64,000 nt of DNA. It comes from Nannocystales bacterium (GTDB lineage: Bacteria; Myxococcota_A; Polyangia; Nannocystales; Nannocystaceae). Positions 29,395-45,219 of the stretch are shown here, piece by piece. Numbering within the stretch: the first letter of the stretch is position 1; each line of letters opens with the position of its first letter. Location: positions 104,717-168,716 of the forward strand of contig JBOEGF010000017.1 in the NCBI GenBank assembly GCA_050633305.1. Direction: 5' to 3'. Position numbers and translations under genes: made by a program. Under the pieces are notes generated by a model. That model saw nothing but the letters and a program-made list of their open reading frames with translations. It was not told the DNA's origin and searched no databases.

Positions 29395-30618
29395 TCACAG
29401 CAGCGCCCCGGCGACACACGCAGAGGAGAAGTTGGCGAGGGTCGCCGCGAGCAGGGCTCGAACACCGAGCCGGGCGATGTCGTGTTTGCGTTCGGGGACC
29501 AAGCCTCCGAGGCCACCGATCAGAATCCCGATGCTGGAGACGTTGGCAAACCCGGTGATCGCGAAGGTGGCGATGGACTGGCTCCGCGTGGACAGCGAAC
29601 CCGAGACCTCGCGAAGCACGTCGAAGGCCACCAGTTCGTTGACCACCGTACGGGTTCCGAGAACCTTGCCGACCTCGAACGCCTCTTCGTACGGAACGCC
29701 CATCAGGAACGCGAGCGGCATGAACAGCCACCCAAACACACGCTCCAAGGTCAACGGAGCCCCACCGACGCTGAAGACCTCGAGGAAGGCGTTGCACAGC
29801 GCCACCAAGGCGATGAAGGCGATCAACATCGCGCCGACGTTGAGCGCAAGCTTCATGCCCTCGCTCGCGCCGCTGGACGCAGCGTCGAGGAGGTTGGCGT
29901 CGGTCTGCGGGATGTCGACGTCGACCTTGCCCGCGGTCAGGGGCGTCTGCGACTCGGGGACGACCAGCTTGGCCATCACCACCGAGATCGGTGCGGTCAT
30001 CGCAACCGCCGTCAGCAGGTTCTCGATGGGGATCTTCCCAATCGAAACGTAGGCACCAAGAATCGCACCAGACACCGATGCCATCCCGGCGACCATGACC
30101 AAGAAGAGCTCGCTCTCGGTGAGCTTCGCAAGGAACGGGCGGATCGTGAGCGGGGCCTCGGTCTGCCCCATGAAGATCGACGCGCCCACCGCCAGAGACT
30201 CGGCGCCGCTGGTCCCCATCGTCCGCACCATCACCCACGCGAGCCCGCGCACGATGATCTGCATGACCCCGAGGTAGTAGAGGATGGAGAACAGCGAGGC
30301 GACGAACACGATGGTGGGCAGGATCTGAAACGCGAAGATCACTCCGAGGTTGGTCTCCCCTCCCCCTTGAGCCCCGAGCCCGCCAAAGACAAAGGCCGAG
30401 CCTTCGTAGGACTTTTGCAGGACTGTCGTCACGCCCTCCGACGCGGTCTCGAGGACCGCTCGTCCTGCCGCGACGCGTAACAGCAGCAGTCCGATGAGCC
30501 ACTGCGCTGCGACGCCCCACAACACCGCACGCTTCGAGATGGCCTTTCGGTCGCGGCAGGCGGCAAAGGCCAGCCCGAGCATGACCATCGCGCCGCCGAC
30601 CGAAACCAGTCGCTCCAT
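29395..30618 (-). CDS. nupC: concentrative nucleoside transporter (NupC/CNT family)
   Basis: FAFQILPTIVF, SGAES, IFMGQTEAPL, MASVSG, MLIAFIAL, VNELVAF, GFANVSSIGI. Confidence 0.95.
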   Translation of the reverse strand: MERLVSVGGAMVMLGLAFAACRDRKAISKRAVLWGVAAQWLIGLLLLRVAAGRAVLETASEGVTTVLQKSYEGSAFVFGGLGAQGGGETNLGVIFAFQILPTIVFVASLFSILYYLGVMQIIVRGLAWVMVRTMGTSGAESLAVGASIFMGQTEAPLTIRPFLAKLTESELFLVMVAGMASVSGAILGAYVSIGKIPIENLLTAVAMTAPISVVMAKLVVPESQTPLTAGKVDVDIPQTDANLLDAASSGASEGMKLALNVGAMLIAFIALVALCNAFLEVFSVGGAPLTLERVFGWLFMPLAFLMGVPYEEAFEVGKVLGTRTVVNELVAFDVLREVSGSLSTRSQSIATFAITGFANVSSIGILIGGLGGLVPERKHDIARLGVRALLAATLANFSSACVAGALL

Positions 30619-31670
30619 CAGGTGGCCTCGACTTCGTCAGAGAACCCGGACAGCTCGTCACCAATCGTCTCGAGAAATCGCCGTTTCTCGTGGAAAGGGA
30701 GGAAGGCCGACTTGAACCCGTTCATGATGACCTGCTTGATGTCGTCCAACGAGAAGTCCATCTGCGCGTAGAGCAAGTGGAGTTCCTTGGACACCGTCGT
30801 GTCGGTGACCAAGCGGTTGTCGGTGTTGACCGTCACCCGGGCCCCGAGGTTGTAGTAGAGCTTCATCGGATGCGTGGGCAGGTCTTCGACCGCCCCCGTC
30901 TGCACGTTGGAAGACGGGCAGCACTCCAGCGGAATGCGGTGGTCGACCACGTAGTGCAGCAGGTCCCCGTCTTCGCGAAGCCGGCACCCGTGCCCCACCC
31001 GATGCGCGCCGCAGTCGTGGATGGCTTGGGCGATCGACGCGGGTCCGTAGGCTTCGCCCGCGTGAATCGTCACGTTGATGTTGTTCTTGCGCACCAGCTT
31101 GAACGCCTCGCTGTGCGCGACCGCCGGGTGGTCATGTTCGGCGCCCGCGAGATCGAAGCCCACCACGCCTCGGTTCTTGTAGGCGACCACAAGCTCCGCC
31201 ATTTGCAGCGAGCTCTCCGGAGAAATGTTTCGGATGCCACAGAGGATGACGCGCGTGACCACCCCGTGTTCCAGCTCTGCGTCATGCGCGGCCGAAAGGA
31301 CAGCCTCGACGATCTGGGTGAGGCGTAGGCCCTGACGCGTGTGCAGCATCGGGGCGTAGCGGACCTCCATGTAGCGGACGTTTTCCGCGGCCGCATCCGC
31401 GCACAGCTCGAACATGGCGCGGTAGATCGCGTCACGGGTTTGCAACACCCTCAGCGTGACGTCGAACGCCTTGAGATACTCCACCAAACTACCGGTGTTC
31501 TGTCCCAGCTTCATCGCGGCGCGCAGCCCGGCTTCGTCCTTGGCCGGCAATTCGACGTTTTGCTCCTGCGCGAGCTCGAGGAGCGTGGACAGGCGCATGG
31601 AGCCGTCCAGGTGGACGTGCAGGTCCGTCTTGGGGAGCTTCTCGAACAGTTCTTCGGGCAGGGTCGCCAT
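30618..31670 (-). CDS. add: adenosine deaminase
   Basis: PKTDLHVHLDGS, GFDLAGAE, TIHAGEA, RVGHG, ECCPSSN, NTDN; TGATG coupling to nupC. Confidence 0.95.
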   Translation of the reverse strand: MATLPEELFEKLPKTDLHVHLDGSMRLSTLLELAQEQNVELPAKDEAGLRAAMKLGQNTGSLVEYLKAFDVTLRVLQTRDAIYRAMFELCADAAAENVRYMEVRYAPMLHTRQGLRLTQIVEAVLSAAHDAELEHGVVTRVILCGIRNISPESSLQMAELVVAYKNRGVVGFDLAGAEHDHPAVAHSEAFKLVRKNNINVTIHAGEAYGPASIAQAIHDCGAHRVGHGCRLREDGDLLHYVVDHRIPLECCPSSNVQTGAVEDLPTHPMKLYYNLGARVTVNTDNRLVTDTTVSKELHLLYAQMDFSLDDIKQVIMNGFKSAFLPFHEKRRFLETIGDELSGFSDEVEAT

Positions 31671-31736: not shown

Positions 31737-32444
31737 ATGCGGACCGTGTGTGCTGGACTGGTGGTCATCGCCAGCGCCGGCTGTAGTCGTCCGCCGCTGG
31801 GGCAGTTCTGTCCCGACGTCGCGGAGGGCGAGCTGGTCATCACCGAGATTCGCGGCCCGCAGACCGGCGGGGACAACCGCGGCCAGTGGTTCGAGGTCTA
31901 CAACGCCTCGGATCGGGCCGTGGATCTGCGAGGGCTTCGCATCGAGCTGTACAACCTGCAAGGGGCTCTGGCTCCGCCGGCGCGGCCGATTCTCGTCCGG
32001 GGAGAGGACGTCGTCGTGCAGCCGGACGAATACGTGACGTTCGGACATCACGATCCGGCCGCCCTACCCGAGTTCGTCAACTACTCCTTCATCACGGACT
32101 ACTTCACGAGCCCCAGCCTCAACGAAGACGAGGTGCTCGAGCTCTTGGACCTCGGCTTAGAGCCCGAGGATTTTGGCGGCCGCCAGCCCAAAGACCTCGA
32201 GCGTTCCGGACGGATCGACCTCGTGGCATGCGATGCCCTCATCGACCGCGTTCGCTACGAGGACCTGCCCAGGGAGGGAACGTTGAGCTTCGACGGCGCC
32301 CTGCGACCTGATGCTGTCGACAACGACGAACTCGAGAATTTCTGCACCAATGAGGCAGAGGAGGAGCTTGCCCCGGGCGAGCCCCGAAACTTCATCGGCC
32401 TGCCCGGAAGTCCACAGGAGGAGAACCCCGCATGCGAAGACTGA
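31737..32444 (+). CDS. lamin-tail-domain (LTD) lipoprotein
   Basis: Lipobox SAGC; LVITEI...QWFEVYN.S...VDL.G; ends GSP.EENP.C. Confidence 0.82.
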   Translation: MRTVCAGLVVIASAGCSRPPLGQFCPDVAEGELVITEIRGPQTGGDNRGQWFEVYNASDRAVDLRGLRIELYNLQGALAPPARPILVRGEDVVVQPDEYVTFGHHDPAALPEFVNYSFITDYFTSPSLNEDEVLELLDLGLEPEDFGGRQPKDLERSGRIDLVACDALIDRVRYEDLPREGTLSFDGALRPDAVDNDELENFCTNEAEEELAPGEPRNFIGLPGSPQEENPACED

Positions 32445-33727
32445 TCTCGACGGGGGTCCTGGGGCTCCTTCTGGGGCTCACGGCCAGCTGCGGCCGCACA
32501 ACGGTCCATTACAGCCGCCAAGCCCTCGCCGATTCTCTCGGGACCCCGGATGCACAGGCTGAGGCGGGGCTGTCCCTCGGCGAATTCGCCCTCGCTCCAG
32601 GCGCCGTCGTCGATGGCGACACCCTCAAGGTCGTCGGGCTCGACGCCAGCTTGCGGCTTCTGGGCCTCGACACCGAGGAGACGTTCAAGTCCGAGAAGGA
32701 CCGTCGCTTGTACGAATCGCTCGGGTTCGAGGCCTACATGGCCAAGAAGGGCGAGGGATCCGACCGCCCAGCCAAATGCGCCACGCCGCTGGGCGACGAC
32801 GCCAAGAAGTTCGCCCAGGCGTTCTTCGTTGGCGATATCAGCGTCAAGCTCGAACGCGACCATGCGAAGGACATGCGGGGCCGATTCGGACGCCTGCTCA
32901 CCTACGTCTTCGTCAAGCGCGGCGACGAGTGGATCAACTACAACGTCGAGGCCGTACGCGCCGGCATGAGCCCCTACTTCACCAAGTACGGGTACTCGCG
33001 GCGCTTCCACGACGAGTTCGTCCAAGCTCAAAAAGAGGCTCGCGAGGCAGAGCGGGGGATCTGGGATCCCAGCCTCGAGCACTACCGAGACTACGACCGC
33101 CGGTTGGAGTGGTGGGACGCGCGTGGAGACTTCATCGCCCGGTTCGAGGAAGACGCACAGGGACGCGAGGACATGATCATGCTCGGCCACTGGGACGCGC
33201 TCGAGCGGATCGCCGCGATGGAGGGCAAGGAGATCGAAGTGCTTGCCGGAGTCGGAGAGATCTACCCTGGAGAGGGCGCTCGTCCGACCCGCGTGATGCT
33301 CAGCAGGCGAATGTTCTCGGACTTCCCGCTGATTTTCTTCGATGAAGACGTGGTGTTGAGTTCCCGTATCGAGGAGGCGAAGGGCGAGTTCGCCAGAGTC
33401 CGCGGCACGGTCAGCGCCTACACGTACAAGTCGCGTCGGCGCCGTGACGACGAGGACCGCACCCAGCTTCAGATCGAGGTGAAGCTGTCACAGCAAGTGA
33501 TCATCTCTGACACCGCGCCCGGGTCCCCGAGCCGTACCCTGCTCGAGCCAGCGCCCCAGCCCGAGGACGCGCCCGACCCCTACGAGGCCGCAGCGACGGC
33601 TCCTCCAGCGGCTCCGCCGGCTCCCGATGTCTCGGACACGCCTCCCGAGGAGCCAGCCTCAGACTCCCCCATCGAAGACCCCCCGCCGGCCCCGGAAGCC
33701 GGCCCCACAGGAGACCGACAGCCATGA
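32432..33727 (+). CDS. staphylococcal-nuclease (thermonuclease) lipoprotein with extra OB-like domain and Pro-rich tail
   Basis: Lipobox TASC; VVDGDTL, RLLGLDTEE, FGRLLTYV, EAREAERGIW catalytic motifs. Confidence 0.9.
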   Translation: MRRLISTGVLGLLLGLTASCGRTTVHYSRQALADSLGTPDAQAEAGLSLGEFALAPGAVVDGDTLKVVGLDASLRLLGLDTEETFKSEKDRRLYESLGFEAYMAKKGEGSDRPAKCATPLGDDAKKFAQAFFVGDISVKLERDHAKDMRGRFGRLLTYVFVKRGDEWINYNVEAVRAGMSPYFTKYGYSRRFHDEFVQAQKEAREAERGIWDPSLEHYRDYDRRLEWWDARGDFIARFEEDAQGREDMIMLGHWDALERIAAMEGKEIEVLAGVGEIYPGEGARPTRVMLSRRMFSDFPLIFFDEDVVLSSRIEEAKGEFARVRGTVSAYTYKSRRRRDDEDRTQLQIEVKLSQQVIISDTAPGSPSRTLLEPAPQPEDAPDPYEAAATAPPAAPPAPDVSDTPPEEPASDSPIEDPPPAPEAGPTGDRQP

Positions 33728-35979
33728 TCCGCCCTTGGACCGCCCAATCTCGCCGCCTCGCGGCTCTGTGTCTCCTCGCATCCGCGTCCGCCTGCGGGGA
33801 CAGCTCCGGCCGTGGCGACGGACCCGGCGAATGCACCGCGAGTCTTCTCCCGGGCGACTTGGTGATCACCGAGGTGATGGCCAACCCCGACGGCGCAGAC
33901 AAGGGCCTCGAATGGTTCGAGGTCTACAACGCGACGGACTCCGAGATCGACCTCTCGGGAGTGCTGTTGCGTTTTCGGAAGGTGGACGGAAGCGGGGAGA
34001 AGATCCATCAAGTCCAGGACACGGTGATCGGGCCGGGCGAATACCTCGTCTTCGGAGACGCCGATCCCGAGGCTCCGCCGGACCACGTTGACTACGGTTA
34101 CGGGGATGAACTCGGCGCGAGCGGCCTCACCAACAGCGGAGGGGAGCTCTCCGTCGGATGCGGCAGCGCCATCATCGATATCGCCCTCTACGAAGAGAGC
34201 GATGACGCGATTGCCCGGGCCTTTGACGGCACACGGGAGCCCGACGCTGTCGGCAACGACGACCTCGGCGCCTGGTGTGACGCCACCACGGAATACGCGG
34301 AAGGGGCCCTCGGGACCCCCGGCGCCGGAAACGATCCGTGTTTCTCGGAGCAACCGACGACGTGCAACCAGGACGGTGTCCCACGGGACATCCTGCCCCC
34401 AACCCCGGGCGACGTCGTCATCACCGAGTTCATGCCCAACCCCGATGCAGTCGGCGACGATGAGGGAGAGTGGTTCGAACTCTACATCGTCAACGATTTC
34501 GACCTCAACGGCCTGGCCCTCACAAAGCTCGGCGACGAGGAACCCACGGACATCATCGGATCGGTCGACTGCATGCCCGCGGGCGCCGGCACCTACTTGC
34601 TCTTTGCCCACTCTGCGGATGCGACGGTCAATGGCGGCCTCCCACCGGTCGACCACCTCTTCACCATGTCGATGTCCAACACCTCGGAGAACGGAACCGG
34701 CATCTCCGTAGGTTGGGGCGGTCAGTTCCTGGACTCCGTCACCTGGACCAATAGCGGCACCGGGGCCAGTAGTCAGCTCAACCCCATGCTGCTCGACCCC
34801 ACCCGCAACGACGAAGAGGATGCATTCTGCCTCTCCGAGGAACCGTACGGGGACGGCGACCTCGGATCTCCAGGCGCCGCCAACCCACCGTGCCCAGTCG
34901 AAGCCCCGGAGGGCTCGTGTGCGGACGAAGACGGGGCTCTTCGCGACATCGTCGCGCCGTCGGTCGGAGACCTCTGGATCACCGAGTTCATGCCCGATCC
35001 GTCCGCAGTGGGCGACCCCGACGGCGAGTGGTTCGAGGTCCACGCGAACGCTGCCTTTGACCTCAACGCGCTCGAGTTTGGCCGCGAGGACGACGTGGAA
35101 GAGACGATCGACCTCGACTCCTGCGCCCCAGTCGCGGCTGGAGACCGGATTCTGTTCGCAAAGAACGCTGAAGCCGCGACCAACGGCGGCCTGCCGGCGG
35201 TCGACTACGAGCTTGGGTTGTCTCTGCTCAACAGCAACGGCCGGCTCTTCATCGCGGCCGACGGCGAGGTGCTCGATGTCGTGACGTGGAGCGGGACGAC
35301 CGCTGGGGCTTCGCGCTCACTCGACCCGTCCGTCTCGGGTCCTGAAGCCAACGACGACGAGGCCAACTGGTGCGACGCCGAAGCGCCCTACGGAGACGGC
35401 GACTTCGGAACCCCCGCCGCCGAAAACCTCGCATGTGGTGGGACTCCGGCCGGCACGTGCGACGACGGCGGCAACATCCGCGACGTAGTCTCCCCCAGCG
35501 CCGGAGACCTGGTCATCACCGAGTGGATGCCCAACCCGGACGCTGTCGGCGATACCGACGGGGAGTGGTTCGAGGTTCTCGTCACCGCGAACGTCGACCT
35601 CAACGGCCTGCAGCTCGGCGACGACCCCGAGAGCCCCGACACCACAATCTCCCCCACCGGGGACTGCATCGCCGTGTCCTCGGGTACCCGCGTCGTCTTC
35701 GCTCGCAATGCCGACGCACTCACCAACGGAGGGGTCGAGTCGGCGATCGAGGCAGGCTTCACGCTGGGCAACGGCGGCGGCGCCCTGTTCGTCGGCATCG
35801 GGGGGGAAGTCCTCGACCAGATCTCGTACTCGGACTCGGCCGCGGGCAGCTCCACCAGCGTTGCGCCCGGCTCCGAGGACACCGTCGCCAACGACGATGA
35901 ACTCAACCACTGCGAGTCGAACACCCCGTACGGCGATGGCGACAACGGCACGCCCGGGGCGGAGAACGCATGCGGGTAG
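33724..35979 (+). CDS. lipoprotein of four tandem lamin-tail domains, very acidic
   Basis: Four GD(L/V)xITExMx(N/D)P...EWFE repeats, each ending G(T/S)PxAxNxxC-like; N-terminal signal ending SASAC. Confidence 0.88.
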   Translation: MIRPWTAQSRRLAALCLLASASACGDSSGRGDGPGECTASLLPGDLVITEVMANPDGADKGLEWFEVYNATDSEIDLSGVLLRFRKVDGSGEKIHQVQDTVIGPGEYLVFGDADPEAPPDHVDYGYGDELGASGLTNSGGELSVGCGSAIIDIALYEESDDAIARAFDGTREPDAVGNDDLGAWCDATTEYAEGALGTPGAGNDPCFSEQPTTCNQDGVPRDILPPTPGDVVITEFMPNPDAVGDDEGEWFELYIVNDFDLNGLALTKLGDEEPTDIIGSVDCMPAGAGTYLLFAHSADATVNGGLPPVDHLFTMSMSNTSENGTGISVGWGGQFLDSVTWTNSGTGASSQLNPMLLDPTRNDEEDAFCLSEEPYGDGDLGSPGAANPPCPVEAPEGSCADEDGALRDIVAPSVGDLWITEFMPDPSAVGDPDGEWFEVHANAAFDLNALEFGREDDVEETIDLDSCAPVAAGDRILFAKNAEAATNGGLPAVDYELGLSLLNSNGRLFIAADGEVLDVVTWSGTTAGASRSLDPSVSGPEANDDEANWCDAEAPYGDGDFGTPAAENLACGGTPAGTCDDGGNIRDVVSPSAGDLVITEWMPNPDAVGDTDGEWFEVLVTANVDLNGLQLGDDPESPDTTISPTGDCIAVSSGTRVVFARNADALTNGGVESAIEAGFTLGNGGGALFVGIGGEVLDQISYSDSAAGSSTSVAPGSEDTVANDDELNHCESNTPYGDGDNGTPGAENACG

Positions 35980-36449
35980 CCTTCGCAGGCCTACTCCTTC
36001 TGACCATCGCCGGGTGCGACACCTCCGAGGGTTCCAGCTGTGGACCCACGCAGGCGGTCGTCGCACGGGTGATCGATGGGGACACGGTCGAGTTGGACGA
36101 CGGCTCGCGCGTTCGCTACCTGATGATCGACACCCCGGAGAGCACACAGGGCAAAGACGACTGTTTCGGGACCGAGTCGACCGAGCTCAACCGGATGTTG
36201 GTCGAAGGCAAGACCGTGACCCTTCGCTACGACGCGGAATGCACCGACCGCTACGATCGGCTCCTGGCGTACATCGAGGTCGATGGGCGCGAGATCAACA
36301 GCTTGATGGTCGAGCGGGGTGCGGCCTGCGTGCTGCACATCCCGCCCAACGGTGAGGACCGCGTCGACGAGTTCGAAGCCCTCGAGGACGAGGCCCGCGA
36401 TGCGATGGTCGGAGTCTGGGGCGCGTGTGAGGACGTAACTTGTGACTAA
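35970..36449 (+). CDS. small thermonuclease (SNase) lipoprotein
   Basis: Lipobox IAGC; VIDGDT, RYLMIDTPE, DRYDRLLAYI, GVWG. Confidence 0.92.
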   Translation: MRVAFAGLLLLTIAGCDTSEGSSCGPTQAVVARVIDGDTVELDDGSRVRYLMIDTPESTQGKDDCFGTESTELNRMLVEGKTVTLRYDAECTDRYDRLLAYIEVDGREINSLMVERGAACVLHIPPNGEDRVDEFEALEDEARDAMVGVWGACEDVTCD

Positions 36450-38652
36450 GCGCCTTTTACCAGTCTTGGCGCTCGGCGCTGCCCTGCTGGGCTCTTCTGC
36501 GGCAGACGCCGCCCAGTACGAGGTGTTCGTCGACGTCGACGACGAAGAAGACCTCTATGACCTGCAGGTCGCAGGTGAGATCAGCAGTGGGACGTTCGAG
36601 ATTCTCGTCGACCAAATCCGGCGCGGGGTCGACCTCAACACCGCAACTCGCGAGCAGTTGTACGCGCTGCCGAACCTGACGTACGAGGAAGTCGACGCGA
36701 TCCTGGCCTATCGTGAGGAAGCCGGCCGAATCGGCGACCCTGCGGCCCTCGTTCTTGCCGGAGCGCTCCCTCGGCGAAAGCTAGCTTCAATCGCTGCGTT
36801 TCTCCTGGTCCCCGCGCCCGAGGGAAGCAAAACCGGAGTTCGCGGACAGGTCCGCTACAGGACCGTATGGACCTCGGAAGACGACCGCGTCCCACCGATG
36901 CTCCTGCAGACGCGGGTCTCAATGCTCCGGCACCTGACGGTCGGCGCAGCCGCCGTGCTCGACCGCAACCGCCTCGAGAATGCGGTCTGGGACCCCAACC
37001 GTGACGCCCTGACAACCAACGGACCCCGCACAACGGCCCGGGTCCCGAAATACTTCGCGCAATGGGACACCCCGAAATGGGGAATCATCGGCGGTACCTA
37101 CAACATCGGGTTTGGTCAGAAGCTCGTCTTCGATACCACCGGTCGCTATACGCCGAACGGGTTCACCTACGACGACACGATGTACCGGCAGACCGACCTC
37201 ACGACCGAATGCCGGTTGTCGACGGGCGAGCTCTCCGAAACACCGTGCCCCCGGGACCAACCTCAGACCTACGTCACCCCGGACTACCGCGAACGGGTCC
37301 GGCAACGCGGTGTTGCGGTGGGCGCCAAGCATATCGACATGCCGGTCGGGTGGATGCAGGCCTATGGTTTTTTCTCGCATCAGACCAAGCCCATCTACTG
37401 GACGGGCGTCTACAACTCCGACACATGCGACGACCCGCGGCTCGCCTCCGACTTGTTCGACGTCTGTGCCGCTCCCCCGGTGTACTTGGGCACCGCCTCC
37501 GACTCGCTCACCCCAGCCCCAAGCCTTCGGTACGCTTCGCTGCCGAACATGTACAACGAGGTTCTGGGCGGGACGAACATCAGCTACTTCGTCGACCGCC
37601 GCACGCATGTGGGTGTGACGGGCTACGGCAGTGGCGTGACATGGCTGACCGAGGGCGCGAACCTCGACTTCCAAGAATGGCAGCGCACGCCCTACGGTGG
37701 CCCGTTCGGAGCAGCCGGTGCCGACATGAGCTGGGGTCGCAACTGGGCGGATGTTTTTGCGGAGGTCGCCTACTCCTTCGACTCCATCCCGCAAGACGGA
37801 GGCGGAGGCCCAGCAGCGATCGTTCGGCATACGGCAAGCTGGGATACCCACGAGATTGAAGTCGCGGGTCGCTACTACGACGAGCGATACCGCAACCCCT
37901 ACGCTCGCTCGATTGCAGCTGCAGACCAGAGCGACGGTCTCCGCGCATCTGATGAGGCTGGCGGCCGGATCCGCTACACAGGAATGATCGCGGAGCGCGT
38001 CCAGCTGCGAACGCTGCTCGACGTGTGGCACGAGCTGAGCACAGACCTCACGCGGCTACGGACGTACGCACGCGGCGACATCCAGGCGCTCCCTTGGCTC
38101 AGACCCGGGATTTGGGTCGACTACCAGACCCGTGACGTCACTGGACGCGGACGCGACCGTTGTTTTTCCGGAGACGGCGACGACACCCGGACAACCGTCG
38201 ACATCATCGAGTTCACATCCTACGAAGACTTCATCCGGCAAGCAGACCGGGGATGCACTGGAACCCGGTACCGGATCCGCCCGCGGGTGCGCGTCGACCC
38301 CCACAAGCGCGTCAATGCCCAGGTCCAGGTCCAGTACTCCTGGGTTGACGACGATCGTTTCCCGGGACGTTTCGCCAACGACATCCGCGTCGTTGGTGTT
38401 GTCGGTGCCAACCCGATCGATCCTCTCCGGCTTCGGTTCCGCATCGCCTGGGACAAAGATGCGATCTCCGACAACGCGTACCTCGAGGAGACCCTGTGGG
38501 GGTACTTCCAGGCGAGCTACCGCTTCCAGACCTGGCTGCAGCCGAGCCTGCGCTACGACATCCGGGCTTGGCTCGACGACCGCGACAGCACCCGTTCTCG
38601 CCGGCCCAACCCCGAGCACTGGGTGCTCTTGCAGATCCTCAGCCGGTTCTAG
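36442..38652 (+). CDS. ComEA-type helix-hairpin-helix domain fused to predicted outer-membrane beta-barrel
   Basis: Sec signal ending AADA; VDLNTATREQLYALPNL...AILAYREEAG HhH; long Tyr/Trp/Gly-rich amphipathic strands; terminal Phe (WVLLQILSRF). Confidence 0.82.
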   Translation: MTKRLLPVLALGAALLGSSAADAAQYEVFVDVDDEEDLYDLQVAGEISSGTFEILVDQIRRGVDLNTATREQLYALPNLTYEEVDAILAYREEAGRIGDPAALVLAGALPRRKLASIAAFLLVPAPEGSKTGVRGQVRYRTVWTSEDDRVPPMLLQTRVSMLRHLTVGAAAVLDRNRLENAVWDPNRDALTTNGPRTTARVPKYFAQWDTPKWGIIGGTYNIGFGQKLVFDTTGRYTPNGFTYDDTMYRQTDLTTECRLSTGELSETPCPRDQPQTYVTPDYRERVRQRGVAVGAKHIDMPVGWMQAYGFFSHQTKPIYWTGVYNSDTCDDPRLASDLFDVCAAPPVYLGTASDSLTPAPSLRYASLPNMYNEVLGGTNISYFVDRRTHVGVTGYGSGVTWLTEGANLDFQEWQRTPYGGPFGAAGADMSWGRNWADVFAEVAYSFDSIPQDGGGGPAAIVRHTASWDTHEIEVAGRYYDERYRNPYARSIAAADQSDGLRASDEAGGRIRYTGMIAERVQLRTLLDVWHELSTDLTRLRTYARGDIQALPWLRPGIWVDYQTRDVTGRGRDRCFSGDGDDTRTTVDIIEFTSYEDFIRQADRGCTGTRYRIRPRVRVDPHKRVNAQVQVQYSWVDDDRFPGRFANDIRVVGVVGANPIDPLRLRFRIAWDKDAISDNAYLEETLWGYFQASYRFQTWLQPSLRYDIRAWLDDRDSTRSRRPNPEHWVLLQILSRF

Positions 38653-39791
38653 CGAATCGTCTCGAGCTCGATCTGCCCCCCGATGAGCACCCGCACCCGC
38701 GCGGCCTCGGGCGAGGCGACGTACGCCTCCCCGACGGTCTCCTCGATCAGCTCGCCCTCCTCGTCGTAGGCGTACCAGCGACGCAGCGGCTCGCCCTCGT
38801 CGAAGCCTTCGGCCGGAGCGGTGTACGTGTCGGCCTCCTCTTCGTCGAGCGTCGCGGCGAAGTGCGGCAGCTCGAACTTGCCAGGCGCACCCGCGGCACC
38901 GAAGAACTCGGTCGACGCATCGTCGAACCGGAAGTCGCAGTGCACGTGGGTGTTGTACTCGACGAGCATGCCGCCGCGGTTGGTGCAGGCGGCCTCCAGG
39001 GTGCTCAGGCCGACCGCGCTCGGATCGAGGTCGAAGCCGTCACCGTACATGTGGCGAGAGTGCGTGGCCCCGCCCACACCTGCGTTGTACTCGGGGGGGC
39101 GGTACCCGGAGTTCACCGTGATCGCGCCAACGTCGTCACGCAGCAGCTGCACGGACTCGACCGCGTGCGGCTGCACGATGCCGTAGCGTCCCTTGTAGGC
39201 CTCGGCGAACTCGCTCAACCGGAAGTTCGGAGACAGCATCGTGGCCGGATCGATCGCCTCGAGGTCGATATATGCGATCGGCTGACGGTAGTTGGGGTCA
39301 CCGCCGAGTGCGGGTGGGTAGTCGTAGCCGTCGGGTTGGAGGTAGTGAAGCTCGAAGCAGGTGGTCCCGCTCTTGTCCGCGCCGGGGTAACAGACTTCGG
39401 TCGGCGCCACGTCGTCGCCGGTTCCATCTCCTCCGGTGCCATCGCCGGTGCCATCCGTCGCCCCGGTGTCCTCGCATTCGCACTCGCTCCACCCGTCGCC
39501 GGCCGCGTTGCAGAGCTGGGAGCCCAGGTGCAAGCCGTCCTCGCACAGGCACTGACGCCCCATCCCGGGGTTGCAGGTCCCGGTGGCATCCGTGGGGTCC
39601 TCCGCTCCCTCCTCATCGCCTTCGGGCTCCCCCCCGGTCGACTCGTCCCCGCCGGTCTCGCCCGTCGAGTCGCCACCGTCTGTCTGCGCGCTCTCGCCGG
39701 CGGTGAAATCGGGGTCCCACCCCTGCCCCGTCGGGTCCTCCTCAGCCACACAGCCAAAGCATGACAACGCGGCGACCACGCCCGCCCACAC
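38649..39791 (-). CDS. peptidase M15A (Zn D-Ala-D-Ala carboxypeptidase-like), probable lipoprotein
   Basis: LSPNFRLSEF, VNSGYR..YN..VGGA..SRH.YG...D, HVHCD; start uncertain. Confidence 0.85.
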   Translation of the reverse strand: MWAGVVAALSCFGCVAEEDPTGQGWDPDFTAGESAQTDGGDSTGETGGDESTGGEPEGDEEGAEDPTDATGTCNPGMGRQCLCEDGLHLGSQLCNAAGDGWSECECEDTGATDGTGDGTGGDGTGDDVAPTEVCYPGADKSGTTCFELHYLQPDGYDYPPALGGDPNYRQPIAYIDLEAIDPATMLSPNFRLSEFAEAYKGRYGIVQPHAVESVQLLRDDVGAITVNSGYRPPEYNAGVGGATHSRHMYGDGFDLDPSAVGLSTLEAACTNRGGMLVEYNTHVHCDFRFDDASTEFFGAAGAPGKFELPHFAATLDEEEADTYTAPAEGFDEGEPLRRWYAYDEEGELIEETVGEAYVASPEAARVRVLIGGQIELETIR

Positions 39792-39915
39792 ATACCCCCT
39801 CCGATTGAACTCCCCCACGAGGCCTACATGTGCACCGCGGGGGTCCAAAGGTTCCCGCGGTCCATCCTCCCCCCGAGTTTCGCGCATCCGGAGGCGTGAC
39901 GTACAGTCCGGGCCG

Positions 39916-41028
39916 ATGGCGCCATCGACCGGAGGCACCGTGCTGCTCGTCGGAGGTGGCACAGGAGGACACATTTACCCGAACGTGGGCGTTGTCGAGC
40001 GGCTCGAAGCTCGAAACCGCAAGGTCGTGCACTTCCTGGTTTCGGACCGCCCCTCGGACGCCAAGATCCTCGACGCGCTGGGGTACCCCTACACGTCGTC
40101 TCCGGCTCGCCCGTTGCCCTCGGCGCGCAAGCCCTGGAAGGCCCTCGACTTCCTCGCCGGGTGGCGACGCTCAACCCGACAGCTGATGGCGCTGCTGGAG
40201 CGAGAGGGCGTCTCCTGCGTGGTCGCTACCGGCGGGTTCGTCTCAGGACCCGCCGTCGTGGCAGCGGCGCGCCGCAAGATTCCTCGCGTCCTCGTGAACC
40301 TCGATGCTGTCCCCGGGCAGGCCAACCGACGTCTGGCTGGGCTGTGTACCAAGGTGTTCTCGAGCTACCCCAGCGACCTGCTGCCCGGCGCCGAACGCAT
40401 CGGACTGCCCCTTCGTGCGGTCTCGGTCGGCGACATGTCCCCACAGGACGCACGGTCGGCACTCGGCCTCGACCCCGAGCTCGCGACGCTCTTCATCACC
40501 GGAGCCACCCACGGGGCAGAGTCTTTGATCAAGGCGATGATGGCGTTCGTGGGGAACGCGGAGCGAGCCGCCGCCTTTGACGGTTGGCAGGTGTTTCACC
40601 AGTGCGGGACGTTCGATGTGGCGACTCTGCAGAAGGCCTATGACGACGCAGGTGTGACAGCCAAGGCGGTCGACTACTGCAGCTCGATGGGCGCCGCATA
40701 CAAGGCCGCCGACCTCGTGGTGAGTCGTGCGGGTGCAGGTAGCGTGGCCGAAGCGTGGGCCAACCACGCACCATCGATCTTTCTTCCCAACCCGTATCAC
40801 AAGGACCAACACCAGCGTTTCAACGCAGAACCGATGGTCCAGGCGGGGGGCGCAGTGATGGTGACCGACCACGTCGACGCTGACGCGACGGCGGCCGATC
40901 TTCAGGGCCCCCTGCTTCAACTGCTTCGTGAGTCCGCCGCCAGGGACGCAATGACCCAGGCATGTGCGGAAAGCTGTCCGCCCGACGGCGCGGAGCAAGT
41001 CGCCACCTGGATCGACACAAACACGTAA
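39916..41028 (+). CDS. murG: MurG-like GT28 glycosyltransferase
   Basis: GGGTGGHIYP, TGGFVS.P, PG.ANR, HQCG, ADLVVSRAGAGSVAE, P.P...HQ..NA. Confidence 0.82.
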   Translation: MAPSTGGTVLLVGGGTGGHIYPNVGVVERLEARNRKVVHFLVSDRPSDAKILDALGYPYTSSPARPLPSARKPWKALDFLAGWRRSTRQLMALLEREGVSCVVATGGFVSGPAVVAAARRKIPRVLVNLDAVPGQANRRLAGLCTKVFSSYPSDLLPGAERIGLPLRAVSVGDMSPQDARSALGLDPELATLFITGATHGAESLIKAMMAFVGNAERAAAFDGWQVFHQCGTFDVATLQKAYDDAGVTAKAVDYCSSMGAAYKAADLVVSRAGAGSVAEAWANHAPSIFLPNPYHKDQHQRFNAEPMVQAGGAVMVTDHVDADATAADLQGPLLQLLRESAARDAMTQACAESCPPDGAEQVATWIDTNT

Positions 41029-41481: not shown

Positions 41482-42807
41482 CTAGAGCGCCCGGTCGACC
41501 AGCGCGCGAACCTCTTCGCCAGCGCGAGCCATCATCTCGGACTCGTCGACGGTGACCAGCTCGCCATCGGTCAGCAGCGGTGTTCCAGCCACCGCGACAT
41601 GGCGCACGGCATCTCGACCGGCCCCATAAACGATGCGGTCGTACACGCTCGAGCAAGGTCCGAAGGACGCCGGCCGCTCGAGGTCGAGCACCACCACGTC
41701 GCCCTGCTTGCCAACCTCGAGGCTGCCCAGGCTGTCGGCTTTGTCGATCGCCGCGGCGCCGTCACACGTTGCGAGAGCCAGTGCCGCCTCGGCCGAGAAC
41801 GCGCCTGGCTTCTGCCGGACCCCCTGAAGCAACGCCGCCAGGCGAATCTCTTCGAGGATGTCCATGTCGTTGTTGCATGGGGCTCCGTCGGTCCCGATCC
41901 CCACCTGCACGCCTTTCGCATCCCCGAGGAAACCGAGATGCGCGATGCCGGAGCCAAGCTTGAGGTTGGCGGACGGGCAATGGCACACCCGCAGGGACCG
42001 CCCCGCGAGAATCTCGAGATGCTCATCGTTGAGTTGCACCCCGTGGGCGATCCGCAGGTCGGTATCGAGGACGCCAAGTCGGTCGAGGTAGCCCATCTGG
42101 CTCTCGCCGAGGACCTCGCGAACCTCGTCTTCTTCGCGCGGGTGCTCGAGCAAGTGCGTGTGCACCGGGAGGTCGAACTCCTGGGCAAGTGCAACCGTCC
42201 GTTCCCACAGCGCCGTGCTGCACGAGAGGATGAAGCGCGGACACAGCGAGGACTCGATGCGACCGTCGTGACCGTGCCAGCGCGCGTGTTGCTCTCGAAA
42301 CAACGCCTCCGCTGCGTCCGGAGGCTCGATGAGCGCATCGGACACGCCCAGCCCGGTGTCCATCAGACACTTGCCTGCGATCGCCCGCAGACCACTGTCG
42401 CGAATCCCCTCGAACAACGCATCCATGTGCGTCACGAGCCCGATTTCCTGGACCGTGGTGGTTCCCGAGCGGATGCAGTCGGCGGCGCCCAGCATCGCCG
42501 ACCAGTACGCGCTGTCGTGAGAGTGCCCCGCTTCGAGCGGCCAGATCCGCTCGCGGAGCCAGTCCATCAACTCGCGCCCCTCGCTGAGCCCGCGCAGCAA
42601 CGCCTGACCGAGGTGAACGTGGCCTTGGATGAAGCCTGGTAAGACGACGTGGCCCGAGACGTCCACCGAGCGGACGCCTGGAGGTGCGGGGGCATCGCCC
42701 AGCGCCGAGATGACCCCGTCTTCAATGAGCAGGTCGCCGGTCACCACGCGACGCTGCGCGTCCATCGTTACCAGCGTGCCGCCCCGCAGGTGCAGCGAGC
42801 CGGCCAT
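41482..42807 (-). CDS. amidohydrolase, 5'-deoxyadenosine/MTA-SAH deaminase family
   Basis: PGFIQGHVHLGQ, IWPLE, HTHLLE, AHGV, HCPSANLKLGSG, GTDGAPCNN. Confidence 0.88.
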   Translation of the reverse strand: MAGSLHLRGGTLVTMDAQRRVVTGDLLIEDGVISALGDAPAPPGVRSVDVSGHVVLPGFIQGHVHLGQALLRGLSEGRELMDWLRERIWPLEAGHSHDSAYWSAMLGAADCIRSGTTTVQEIGLVTHMDALFEGIRDSGLRAIAGKCLMDTGLGVSDALIEPPDAAEALFREQHARWHGHDGRIESSLCPRFILSCSTALWERTVALAQEFDLPVHTHLLEHPREEDEVREVLGESQMGYLDRLGVLDTDLRIAHGVQLNDEHLEILAGRSLRVCHCPSANLKLGSGIAHLGFLGDAKGVQVGIGTDGAPCNNDMDILEEIRLAALLQGVRQKPGAFSAEAALALATCDGAAAIDKADSLGSLEVGKQGDVVVLDLERPASFGPCSSVYDRIVYGAGRDAVRHVAVAGTPLLTDGELVTVDESEMMARAGEEVRALVDRAL

Positions 42808-43361
42808 CAGCTCGAGTAGACCTCGGGCTTGAGGACGCCGATGTACGGCAGGTTTCGGTAGTGCCCGTCGTAGTCGAGTCCGTAGCCGACGACGAACTTG
42901 TTGGGGCACACGAAGCCGCGGTACCGAACCTGAACGTTCTCCGAGCGTGCCTCGTGCTTGTCCAACAACGTGCAGATCTCGATCGACGCGGGCTGCCGGG
43001 TCTGAAGGTTCTCGACCAGGTACTTGAGCGTGAGGCCGGTGTCGATGATGTCCTCGACGATCAGAACGTGCCGGTTCTCGATCGAGGTGTTGAGGTCCTT
43101 GAGGATCCGGACGACGCCCGAACTCTTCGTGGTTCCCTCGTACGAGCTGCACGCCATGAAGTCGACCTCGAGCTGGATGTCGAGCGCTCGGGTCAGGTCC
43201 GCGATGAACGGGTAGCAACCGCTGAGGATGCCGATGACCAAGGGGTTCTTCTCCCGATAGTCGTCCTCGATCGTTGTCGCGAGTTCAGCGATCTTCGCGT
43301 CGATCTGCTCGCGGCTGAAGAGGGTCTCGGCGATGGCGTCGGCCAGGCTCGGCTTGGACAT
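42807..43361 (-). CDS. hpt: hypoxanthine phosphoribosyltransferase
   Basis: SSY...SSG.V, VLIVEDIIDTGLTL, LLDK, FVVGYGLDY...RNLPYI. Confidence 0.96.
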   Translation of the reverse strand: MSKPSLADAIAETLFSREQIDAKIAELATTIEDDYREKNPLVIGILSGCYPFIADLTRALDIQLEVDFMACSSYEGTTKSSGVVRILKDLNTSIENRHVLIVEDIIDTGLTLKYLVENLQTRQPASIEICTLLDKHEARSENVQVRYRGFVCPNKFVVGYGLDYDGHYRNLPYIGVLKPEVYSS

Positions 43362-43396: not shown

Positions 43397-44470
43397 TCAA
43401 GCGCCTCGCCGGCGGATCAGACCCAACACCCCCAGAAACACCAGCATCGCCGCACTTTTCGGGCGTTCCCCTGTGGAGCACCCCCCCTCTCCGGATGCGG
43501 CCGCCGAATCCGTGTCGGTCCCCGTGCCCCCGTCCGCGGTCGTTGTAGGGGTCCCGGCCGTCGCCGAATCCCCGGAGTTCGACGTGGACCCTCCCGGGCC
43601 GTCACTCGACGAGCTCGGGGTTCCGCCAGTTGTCGAATCCGAGTCGCCGGAGTCCGACGCATCGCTCGTCTCCCCCGTCGTCCACCCGCCGCCGCTGGAG
43701 CCCCCGCCCGTGCTCTCTCCCGATGCATCCGGCAAGGTGTCGAACTCCACGTCCTCCAGCGAGTCGCCTTCCAGCGCGTGGTCGAGAATGATCGTCGGAA
43801 CATCCTCAAATTCGATCGCCCCACGCAGCAGACCGACCTGAACGAAGTGTGGATTGTTGTCCGCCAGCGTCTGCGCGCTCGCGTCGGCCACCACCTGCTC
43901 ACCATCGAACCACAGGCTCACCCGCCCCTGGTCCACGCTGGTCGACCAGGTGACCGACATCGCGATCCGATGCCACTCTCCCACCGTCAACACGTCGGCC
44001 TCCCACGGGGTCACGTTCTGCGGCCGCCGCGTGTGGAAACGAAGCGTGCTGCCCACGGCCTCGAATGCCATGACTTGTTGATAGCTCCCGGCGGACTCCC
44101 AATAGCCGATCTGCTGACTCGGGTCCGCGGGGAGCCCATACGGGACATACAGACTCCACGCGAAGAAGGTCGTCGAGCCCTCAGCCGTCCGCGCATCCTC
44201 GGGCCGGTGTTGCAGCTCCACCCGCTTGAGCCCGTTGCCCCACTGTGCATCGTTGTGAAGCTCGACCCGGGCGGCGTACGAGCCCTGTGCGACCTGGCCC
44301 TCCTCGAGGGTGATGTAGTCCACACGGTTGATCGTCGGGTTGAGTAGGAACCCGAACTGCGAGAGGTCGGCGGACTCGAAGTCTCCCGACCAGACCGGCG
44401 CAGCCTCCACCACCGACGGGGCAAGCAACAGTCCGGAGGTCAGGGCGAGGGCGAGGCCGCGGGTTCGCAT
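43397..44470 (-). CDS. polysaccharide-lyase-like protein with Ser/Thr/Gly linker and MYXO-CTERM anchor
   Basis: Signal peptide; W.GDFE, RVEL, G.WH, W.DG; C-terminus GGCSTG...LVFLGVLGLIRRR. Confidence 0.8.
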   Translation of the reverse strand: MRTRGLALALTSGLLLAPSVVEAAPVWSGDFESADLSQFGFLLNPTINRVDYITLEEGQVAQGSYAARVELHNDAQWGNGLKRVELQHRPEDARTAEGSTTFFAWSLYVPYGLPADPSQQIGYWESAGSYQQVMAFEAVGSTLRFHTRRPQNVTPWEADVLTVGEWHRIAMSVTWSTSVDQGRVSLWFDGEQVVADASAQTLADNNPHFVQVGLLRGAIEFEDVPTIILDHALEGDSLEDVEFDTLPDASGESTGGGSSGGGWTTGETSDASDSGDSDSTTGGTPSSSSDGPGGSTSNSGDSATAGTPTTTADGGTGTDTDSAAASGEGGCSTGERPKSAAMLVFLGVLGLIRRRGA

Positions 44471-44565
44471 GACCCGATGGAGCCCCAGCCAGGCCAGCGC
44501 GTCAACGGCAACCGTGTGGCGTGCGGACCAGGTATGACCGCATACGGTTCGGCCTCCGCGCGGCC

Positions 44566-45219
44566 TCAGTCGGCCAGGCCATACACCCGAACCGCGCGCT
44601 CCGACTCGCGGACACCGAGCGCCTGCGCGATGACGCGAGCGATCTTCTCGCCGCCGCGGACACCGGGTTCGATCTCGTTCGCATAGTCCGCCGGCTCCGT
44701 ACAGACGCTCCGAAGGTCGATGACGTCGGCGCCCCGAGCGAGCGCAGCACGGATGATGACATCGTTGAACAGCGCCAACGCGGTCACAGCCCGCGCTCCT
44801 TGTTCGCCGGGGATGTTCGCATCGTAGACCGTACAGACGCTGACGGGACGCCCCAGCTCGCACACAGCATCGAGCGCCCAGCCGTACGACTGCGCGAACT
44901 CGGACACGCGTTCGCCGAGGAGGTCGATTGCGCCGCCGGCGTCTCCGACCGGAATACCGCCCAGCAAGTCGGCGTTCTCCAGGGCGTCGTTCCCTCCCAG
45001 TGACAGCACGATGTGCGTGACATGGTCGGGTACGCGGGCCAGCTGCGCGCCGACATCTTGGGTCGTGGTCCCATCGACGGCACACAGCGTGACCCGCCAC
45101 CGGTCCGGGTCGTCGGGTCCGCCCATCACGGCACGGAGCTGGGCCGCGACGTCCGGGCCCGCGCCGACATAGGCTTTGTTGTCGAGGATCGAGTCTCCAA
45201 GTAGTGCAATCGATGTCAT
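44566..45219 (-). CDS. SGNH/GDSL hydrolase
   Basis: LLGDSILDN, AVDG, SLGGNDAL, NEIEP (block V has Glu instead of His). Confidence 0.85.
   Translation of the reverse strand: MTSIALLGDSILDNKAYVGAGPDVAAQLRAVMGGPDDPDRWRVTLCAVDGTTTQDVGAQLARVPDHVTHIVLSLGGNDALENADLLGGIPVGDAGGAIDLLGERVSEFAQSYGWALDAVCELGRPVSVCTVYDANIPGEQGARAVTALALFNDVIIRAALARGADVIDLRSVCTEPADYANEIEPGVRGGEKIARVIAQALGVRESERAVRVYGLAD

Follow-up and report, generated by a model that had tools for sequence, protein, structure and literature searches.

The barrel gene and its operon

The locus described here lies in a 64,000-nt stretch of the genome of a Nannocystales bacterium (GenBank assembly GCA_050633305.1, contig JBOEGF010000017.1, forward-strand positions 104,717 to 168,716), which we call the window, and centers on a gene for a predicted outer-membrane beta-barrel with a helix-hairpin-helix (HhH) fold at its N-terminus. 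The barrel gene (window positions 36442..38652, + strand) has a GTG start codon, is single-copy in the source genome, and is the last of five overlapping genes, with overlaps of 13, 4, 10 and 8 nt. Preceding it, in order and all on the + strand, are genes for a lipoprotein with a single lamin-tail domain (LTD) and a lipobox-like Cys (31737..32444; Pfam LTD E 2e-7, just below the cut-off), a thermonuclease (SNase) lipoprotein with a Pro-rich tail (32432..33727), an acidic lipoprotein with four tandem LTDs (33724..35979), and a small thermonuclease lipoprotein (35970..36449) whose stop codon overlaps the barrel start by the final 8 nt. The calcium-binding and catalytic Asp/Arg/Glu residues are present in both thermonucleases. 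The source genome (11 Mb) has four SNase matches, of which two are in the operon, and 10 LTD matches in eight genes, two of them in the operon.

Judged by these overlaps, the operon is translationally coupled. Its organization resembles that of a polymer utilization locus (PUL) or of the ddb locus, with secreted hydrolases, an accessory lipoprotein, an outer-membrane barrel and uptake genes; this likeness is one of gene order and overlaps, and co-transcription is predicted. A scan gave no match to a sigma-70 promoter, and fewer terminator matches than in shuffled sequences; the locus had no listed RNA holder. Separately, the larger thermonuclease has a possible OB-like second domain (aa 240-362, window 33149-33517) that resembles OB-fold nucleic-acid-binding domains and an S1/P1 nuclease domain, with atlas scores below 0.9, so that it serves as a lead only.

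Sequence features of the barrel protein

The 736-aa product consists of a signal peptide, an acidic N-terminal domain built around a pseudo-HhH fold, and a 24-stranded outer-membrane beta-barrel. The probable Sec signal peptide, judged by eye, covers about aa 1-23 (36442..36510, +). It is followed by an acidic segment, aa 24-60 (36511..36621, +), with 11 Asp/Glu and one Lys/Arg, which forms a strand and two helices and packs on the HhH fold. The latter is a degenerate (HhH)2 domain, aa 61-122 (36622..36807, +), with the ComEA fold but lacking the DNA-contact hairpins and the key lysine; its match to Pfam HHH_3 (aa 61-121) has an E-value of 1.8e-7 and 31.6 bits (cut-off 27). The barrel itself, aa 134-736 (36841..38649, +), is rich in Arg at lumen-facing positions on strands 14-24 and ends with a C-terminal Phe. 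This part of roughly 600 residues has no match in Pfam or NCBIfam.

Four of the six cysteines in the barrel (257, 269, 329 and 342) are conserved at 96-98%, and the other two (574 and 605) at 65-69%. All six sit in long inter-strand loops in the AlphaFold model, and we infer that they are paired. The terminal Phe is invariant in the 108 close homologues that were aligned, and is found in 380 of 416 rows of the wider family that have a residue at that position. The features listed in the original prediction, namely a signal peptide, an acidic segment, an HhH motif, Cys-paired loops and a terminal Phe, are thus borne out, the signal peptide by eye and the cysteine pairs by inference; the HhH motif quoted there is found in the protein.

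Predicted structure of the barrel

The AlphaFold2 model, built on 108 sequences, has a mean predicted local distance difference test (pLDDT) score of 86.8 and a predicted TM score (pTM) of 0.85, and contains a helical N-domain followed by 24 long strands that span aa 134-735 (hand count of the DSSP list). An outer-membrane beta-barrel had been proposed from the sequence, with a check of strand number by AlphaFold and Foldseek; the fold is confidently predicted as a barrel, and the even strand number accompanies the signal peptide, amphipathic strands and C-terminal aromatic residue typical of BAM substrates. The HhH-fold domain precedes strand 1 in the model and is therefore on the periplasmic side, as had also been proposed.

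In structural comparisons, FimD and PapC, ushers with 24 strands, come out on top (Z 15.2, root-mean-square deviation 4.8 Å, 374 aligned residues, 8-10% identity, TM 0.34-0.50). This resemblance is one of barrel size, not of family. Foldseek and VIA gave generic barrel matches for this model and for that of the Bacteroidota-type homologues described below, which is no proof of a new fold, and a profile search of PDB sequences found no homologue of the barrel part of either type, with only the HhH part being matched.

The usher matches bear on an alternative that we consider unlikely, in which the barrel is an export or display pore that translocates the LTD-repeat and nuclease lipoproteins or anchors them at the surface, in the manner of an usher with its Ig-fold subunits or of SprA with PorV, with no nucleic acid passing through it. 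The shared strand number is consistent with such a pore, as is an HhH domain without DNA-contact residues, but the low identity and TM scores reduce the similarity to size, and the most conserved parts of the protein are loops that are predicted to narrow the lumen.

These loops follow strand 5, where it is the start of the loop that is conserved (aa 224-245; 37111..37176, +), and strand 13 (aa 480-504; 37879..37953, +), and both are predicted to fold into the lumen beside one another. They are the two most conserved regions measured, with aa 224-245 ranking top among those tested, and the strand-13 loop aligns with high confidence to the Bacteroidota-type family. Mean-field coevolution analysis (424 sequences, effective number 313) places 19 adjacent-strand pairs and 8 non-adjacent pairs in the top 100. 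In the same analysis, the two loops coevolve with strands across the barrel and with each other (ranks 2, 5, 10, 19 and 21, with ranks 2, 10 and 21 involving the strand-5 loop).

Lumen-facing positions were assigned by hydrophobic alternation, which is unreliable in its parity on strands 3-9. With this limit, they hold on average 28.8 Lys/Arg and 20.1 Asp/Glu. The basic excess is on strands 14-24 (18.6 Lys/Arg vs 10.7 Asp/Glu), whereas strands 8-13 are acidic (3.1 vs 6.7).

Within the N-domain, the acidic segment and the HhH fold are joined by the coevolving pairs D33-A119, F29-S116 and V32-I59, and the N-terminal strand, examined as a possible TonB box, coevolves with its own domain. There is no support from coevolution for a plug in the lumen. 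When either of the two independent models is aligned to TonB-dependent receptors, the aligned range opens at model residues 22-33 opposite plug residues, as far as the ends of the aligned ranges tell. Together the models contain hints that the N-domain is located in the periplasmic mouth.

The N-terminal domain compared with ComEA

In the original prediction, the fused HhH domain could bind DNA in the periplasm and act as a ratchet that draws it in across the pore, much like ComEA beneath the PilQ secretin. We regard this as improbable. The domain does lie on the correct side of the membrane and scores above the HHH_3 cut-off, but comparison with Geobacillus ComEA (8dss) shows that both Gly-Ile-Gly hairpins are replaced, and that Glu83 stands where ComEA has a lysine behind its first hairpin. 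Across the family, Gly-x-Gly is kept in 3 of 412 rows for the first hairpin and 1 of 351 for the second. At position 83, 14 of 412 rows have Lys/Arg, and 292 have Asp/Glu at 82 or 83. The 46 Bacteroidota-type rows have the two first-hairpin glycines in 0 and 1 cases, and Lys/Arg at the key position in none.

Alignment suggests that position 83 is equivalent to K63 of V. cholerae ComEA, K164 of B. subtilis and K166 of Geobacillus. K63E, G60V and G60E of V. cholerae ComEA abolish transformation and K62/63A abolishes DNA binding (PMC3879209), and Geobacillus ComEA K166A does not bind DNA, this lysine being described as the best-conserved residue tested (PMC9747964). Judged by its residues, the supposed DNA-binding domain has lost what is needed to grip DNA.

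Charge argues in the same direction. The net charge of the N-domain ranges from -21 to -2 (median -13) and is negative in 392 of 392 rows, whereas the genome's own ComEA has a charge of +11. The HhH part alone has a median charge of -3, and is positive in 26 rows. M. xanthus has a shortened second HhH motif, and in Corallococcus this motif is deleted. ComEA membership was rejected on the loss of the hairpin glycines and key lysine, together with scores of 16.2 bits for TIGR01259 (cut-off 152.35) and 14.9 bits for TIGR00426 (cut-off 53.1), the HhH_3 fold itself being present.

Some observations are more favorable to DNA binding. Position 113, which matches the lysine of the second motif, is Lys/Arg in 175 of 351 rows and belongs to a basic patch in this protein, Gly is found at position 78 in 110 of 412 rows, and a true ComEA gene lies directly upstream of the barrel in one (L086) of 40 distant loci. 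DNA might also be bound by the HhH through bridging Ca or Mg ions. Even so, a single tethered domain per pore would presumably be unable to load cumulatively, as free ComEA does. Elsewhere in the source genome there are three secretins, ComEC, DprA and two genes of ComEA type whose Gly-x-Gly and lysine are intact. The original proposal is supported in part, with respect to the barrel, the side on which the domain lies and a gene neighborhood of nucleic-acid functions, and is not supported with respect to the ComEA-type grip and ratchet.

Two further proteins, Riemerella RA0C_RS02645 (HhH at aa 236-301) and P. gingivalis PGN_0421 (ComEA domain at aa 94-165), have the domain in positions unlike that of the barrels (about aa 56-121), and we do not count them as support for the family.

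Gene neighborhoods in Myxococcota

Counts for close loci refer to the best 80 of 269 GTDB loci, those named being from Nannocystaceae, Kofleriaceae, Sandaracinaceae and other Myxococcota. Beside the barrel gene, these have an LTD gene in 76 cases. The small thermonuclease is there in 70 and the large thermonuclease in 68, with one or more thermonucleases in 75; in three of the five loci without one, the contig edge ends the locus. Six positions that we take to be catalytic, with their choice and numbering taken from staphylococcal nuclease, are kept in 65-70 of the 70 small and 66-68 of the 68 large homologues. Six close loci carry one more thermonuclease gene, which runs on the opposite strand and lies within or next to the operon, between the small thermonuclease and the barrel region (L020, L027, L036, L038, L040 and L043), and two have a gene like that of the ERG4/ERG24 sterol reductases directly 3' of the barrel (L001:12236-13501 and L002).

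Genes of nucleoside salvage are found within 10 kb in 25 of the 80 close loci (NupC 16, adenosine deaminase 12, thymidine kinase 11, uracil phosphoribosyltransferase 3, 5'-nucleotidase 2). In the window, an adenosine deaminase gene (30618..31670, - strand; TIGR01430 above cut-off) is divergent from the operon, 66 bp from its start, and is coupled to a gene for a concentrative nucleoside transporter of the NupC/NupG type (29395..30618, -). A second pair of purine salvage genes, for hypoxanthine phosphoribosyltransferase (HPRT) and an amidohydrolase like 5'-deoxyadenosine deaminase (41482..43361, -), is loosely linked to the barrel (6 and 3 of 80 loci, respectively).

For the wider phylum, a 99-row profile was run against 401 genomes at E 1e-10. 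It matched 196 genomes, of which 96 (about a quarter of the 401) carry the barrel, called by hand count at E 1e-40 or better, and the rest have the HhH only. M. xanthus DK1622 has a homologue, MXAN_0568 (32% identity, E 2e-94). With a single M. xanthus query, the barrel was found within the class in 57 of 70, 40 of 67 and 17 of 25 genomes of three families (the count of 40 of 67 takes in two unpublished genomes, on which nothing else here depends), and in 0 of 33 and 0 of 71 genomes of two others. A search of a plasmid collection gave weak matches to the HhH only.

Forty of the 96 barrel loci, picked to spread over 16 families, were scanned across the three nearest genes on either side. Of these distant loci, 33 have an LTD gene (31 by Pfam, 2 by a local hidden Markov model (HMM)), and in one further locus an LTD-like open reading frame (ORF) was skipped by the gene caller. 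A nuclease is present in 32, and is of three types that overlap in some loci: SNase in 16, a NucT-like phospholipase D (PLD) in 10, and a ComEC-like metallo-beta-lactamase (MBL) in 9 (Pfam finding 5 of them and a local HMM the other 4). The NucT-like PLD is a small lipoprotein with a single HxK-x4-D motif. By family, a nuclease occurs in 14 of 16 and an LTD in 15 of 16; the exceptions are family f38, with neither partner, two loci with an LTD only, and the locus with a true ComEA directly upstream. On a quick tree, the nuclease type tracks clades and the barrel is constant, and the nuclease partner has therefore been kept through replacements by unrelated folds.

The LTD protein, as the most constant neighbor of the distant barrels, would also suit a pore that exports or displays its partner lipoproteins. 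However, the partners differ in their anchors, having either an N-terminal lipobox or a C-terminal tail of the form Cys-hydrophobic-Arg, and such a pore would leave neighboring ComEC, DprA and 5'-nucleotidase genes unexplained. The C-terminal tail was seen by eye in 15 of 32 distant multi-LTD proteins, 4 of the 15 having matches to MYXO-CTERM below the cut-off.

Individual loci have features of their own. Of the five f38 loci (L092, L095, L097, L104 and L105), three sit behind a gene for an unannotated secreted protein, just upstream of mreB/mreC. In one of the 40 loci, genes for a TonB C-terminal protein and ExbD converge on a PLD-barrel-LTD run (L083:2406-3727), and in another, two genes for YscW-like lipoproteins are directly 5' of the LTD gene (L082:9297-10306). 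Three frames exceed the usual barrel length and have apparent, unannotated N-terminal extensions (L126:3-2570, L197:737-4351 and P0252), and some genomes carry two full-length barrel paralogues (G261, G331 and G376).

On the 3' side of the barrel in the window, a gene for a peptidase M15 protein with a lipoprotein-like N-terminus (38649-39974, -) is convergent with it, the two stop codons overlapping by 4 nt; it is found in 8 of the 80 close loci. Farther away is a gene for a polysaccharide-lyase-family protein (43397-45100, -) whose Ser/Thr/Gly linker is long and whose C-terminal tail is of the Cys-hydrophobic-Arg form.

Bacteroidota-type homologues

When the ESM atlas is queried with the barrel part by itself, it gives Bacteroidota clusters under the name "ComEA family DNA-binding" or "helix-hairpin-helix domain", with scores of 0.95-0.96. 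A short motif pulled out 120 metagenome stretches, 80 of them with flanks, and 52 gave ORFs of 600-760 aa. The myxobacterial profile matches the metagenome ORFs, including a C-terminal barrel segment outside both the HhH and the search motif (best E for shuffled sequences, 1.5), and 46 aligned ORFs match it over 615 columns (hhalign probability 99.94%, E 1.7e-36). Their model has 24 strands and a pLDDT of 88.7. We call these homologues Bacteroidota-type because of their neighbor genes.

Thirty-six of the 39 loci of at least 7 kb were scanned for neighbors, with three near-duplicates and four ORFs below 100 aa dropped. The constant partner is a 270-aa barrel similar to PorV/PorQ; 19 of 24 aligned proteins match NF033709, the first member scoring below the cut-off. 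This pairing is a further point for the export or display of lipoproteins. ComEC is directly downstream in 5 of the 36 loci, and DprA directly upstream in one. A distant homologue with two HhH (L154) has, after it, genes for a FadL-like barrel and a 5'-nucleotidase and then an LTD gene.

The ComEC and DprA neighbors in these 6 of 36 loci raise the question of whether the barrel admits intact or single-stranded DNA, which would then be met, depending on the lineage, by periplasm-facing nucleases (as food) or by free ComEA and ComEC (for transformation). Such a conduit could be accommodated by 24 strands, the size of an usher, and the lipoprotein nucleases could occupy either face of the membrane. 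In addition, the route of DNA into the periplasm of P. gingivalis is stated to be unknown in PMC11532111. Opposed to it, the loops that fold inward would, with the N-domain, make the pore narrower, and the myxobacterial operon has no competence gene. In Riemerella, a screen implicated a different barrel, RA0C_RS04915, a homologue of the TonB-dependent DdbC (PMC8459023; bioRxiv 2025.03.18.642099). On balance we find passage of long DNA quite unlikely.

Proposed function

The neighborhood points strongly to nucleic acids, in support of that side of the original prediction. The barrel shares a conserved operon with secreted DNA-cutting enzymes and therefore probably imports DNA fragments, and since the myxobacterial partners are nucleases and salvage genes, this points to food rather than transformation. 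We therefore propose, with a probability of roughly 0.6, that the barrel is the outer-membrane channel of a nucleic-acid scavenging system, in which fragments cut by the nucleases are imported through an Arg-rich lumen with in-folded loops and an acidic pseudo-HhH gate. It is probably also a docking platform for this system, and soil myxobacteria probably use it to import fragments of environmental DNA as food.

In such a system, the membrane-anchored thermonucleases, with their intact catalytic residues, would act at the cell surface to cut environmental DNA or RNA, and the multi-LTD lipoproteins may assist capture or nuclease action. Short fragments would then cross the Arg-rich barrel, itself a confident prediction, by way of a constriction formed by the two loops, which coevolution suggests are folded inward. 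At or in the periplasmic mouth, the acidic pseudo-HhH domain might be a gate, a plug or a DNA mimic, with no ratchet. Nucleosides would enter the cell through NupC and be salvaged by adenosine deaminase, HPRT and thymidine kinase, whose genes are linked to the locus. The pull would thus come from degradation and consumption, not from ComEA-type binding.

A number of points weigh against this proposal. The case for transport is built from gene neighbors and predicted models, and ordinary porins could let through the small molecules that a thermonuclease produces. An Arg-rich lumen is a common feature of porins, and the lumen-facing assignment is insecure on strands 3-9. The enrichment of pairs indicating in-folding of the loops is modest (6 vs 2.8 expected, and 5 vs 3.2 expected), and the pair of strands 1 and 24 that would close the barrel is absent from the top 660 coevolving pairs. 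Three coevolving pairs tie the N-domain to the periplasmic turn at Ala549, and pairs between N-domain and strands are below chance in the top 100 (2 vs 5.1, and 3 vs 8.6). The linkage to salvage genes is mostly that of one family, and the close loci are kin. Family f38 (5 of the 40 distant loci) has no nuclease or LTD nearby. Among the Bacteroidota-type loci scanned, SNase, PLD, MBL and LTD neighbors number 0 of 36, the constant partner being the PorV/PorQ-like barrel, and the five ComEC cases may be one clade, three of them grouping together on a quick tree.

More tentatively, and as a possibility rather than an expectation, the family might represent an undescribed class of nucleic-acid channel that is neither a secretin, a TonB-dependent receptor nor a classical porin, consisting of a 24-stranded barrel gated by a ComEA-derived domain turned acidic DNA mimic. 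This class would be common to Myxococcota, which would have recruited three unrelated nucleases to it in order to feed on DNA of prey or of the environment, and to Bacteroidota-type and other lineages, where it stands beside ComEC or nucleotidases and may give pilus-independent entry of DNA.

No description of the barrel family, of MXAN_0568 or of the Bacteroidota-type barrels was found in the literature, with most subscription papers, and supplements whose proteomics or Tn-seq tables could include these genes, outside the coverage for the first two, and the main text of PMC10629564 has no mention of HhH or ComEA. The locus is a real, conserved and apparently undescribed variant of a nutrient-utilization locus with an unrelated barrel. 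If the proposed scavenging function is correct, it would explain how predatory and soil myxobacteria obtain phosphorus, nitrogen and nucleosides from prey DNA, and through its homologue MXAN_0568 the question can be put to the test directly in M. xanthus DK1622. If the HhH is an acidic gate, caution is called for in annotating such proteins as "ComEA family DNA-binding".

Comparison with known systems

The N-domain resembles ComEA in its HhH_3 fold (taken by itself, it matches 8dss at E 1.4e-4) and its periplasmic side, but ComEA of V. cholerae, B. subtilis and Geobacillus (PDB 8dss, 8dfk) is not fused to a barrel and has no extra acidic subdomain. With the ushers FimD and PapC, the protein shares the 24-stranded barrel, and these are the top match for both models (Z 15.2 and 13.8). 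A fimbrial usher was rejected, since there is no usher Pfam match, the N-domain is helical, and no chaperone or pilin genes are among the neighbors scanned. The Bacteroidota-type barrels are similar in full-length homology, 24 strands and a degenerate acidic N-domain, and differ in having PorV/PorQ-like partners (sometimes ComEC) instead of LTD and nuclease partners; their consensus also lacks the Cys-paired loops.

LTDs are linked to nuclease function and DNA foraging in Shewanella ExeM and in Izemoplasmatales loci (PMC6085458, PMC8289736). There, the LTD is fused to the nuclease, whereas here the LTDs form separate repeat lipoproteins beside a dedicated barrel.

The closest functional analogue is ddbABCDEF of B. 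thetaiotaomicron (RA0C_RS04915/04920 in Riemerella), a single locus that combines an outer-membrane barrel with nucleases that are secreted and with an accessory protein of the surface, and that feeds nucleobase deamination; the DdbC protein of this locus, whose partner is a DUF5689 protein, is described as a TonB-dependent transporter (bioRxiv 2025.03.18.642099). Unlike DdbC, the protein described here is predicted to have 24 strands, its N-domain is helical with an HhH fold, and its partners are LTD proteins and thermonucleases. A TonB-dependent transporter of the SusC/DdbC type was rejected, as both models have 24 rather than 22 strands and there is no Pfam match to Plug or TonB_dep_Rec at E 0.01. 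How nucleic acids enter through the outer membrane in Gram-negative bacteria without a DNA-uptake pilus is largely open; the TonB-dependent ddb system is the one alternative that we found described, and the present barrel family is a second, structurally unrelated candidate.

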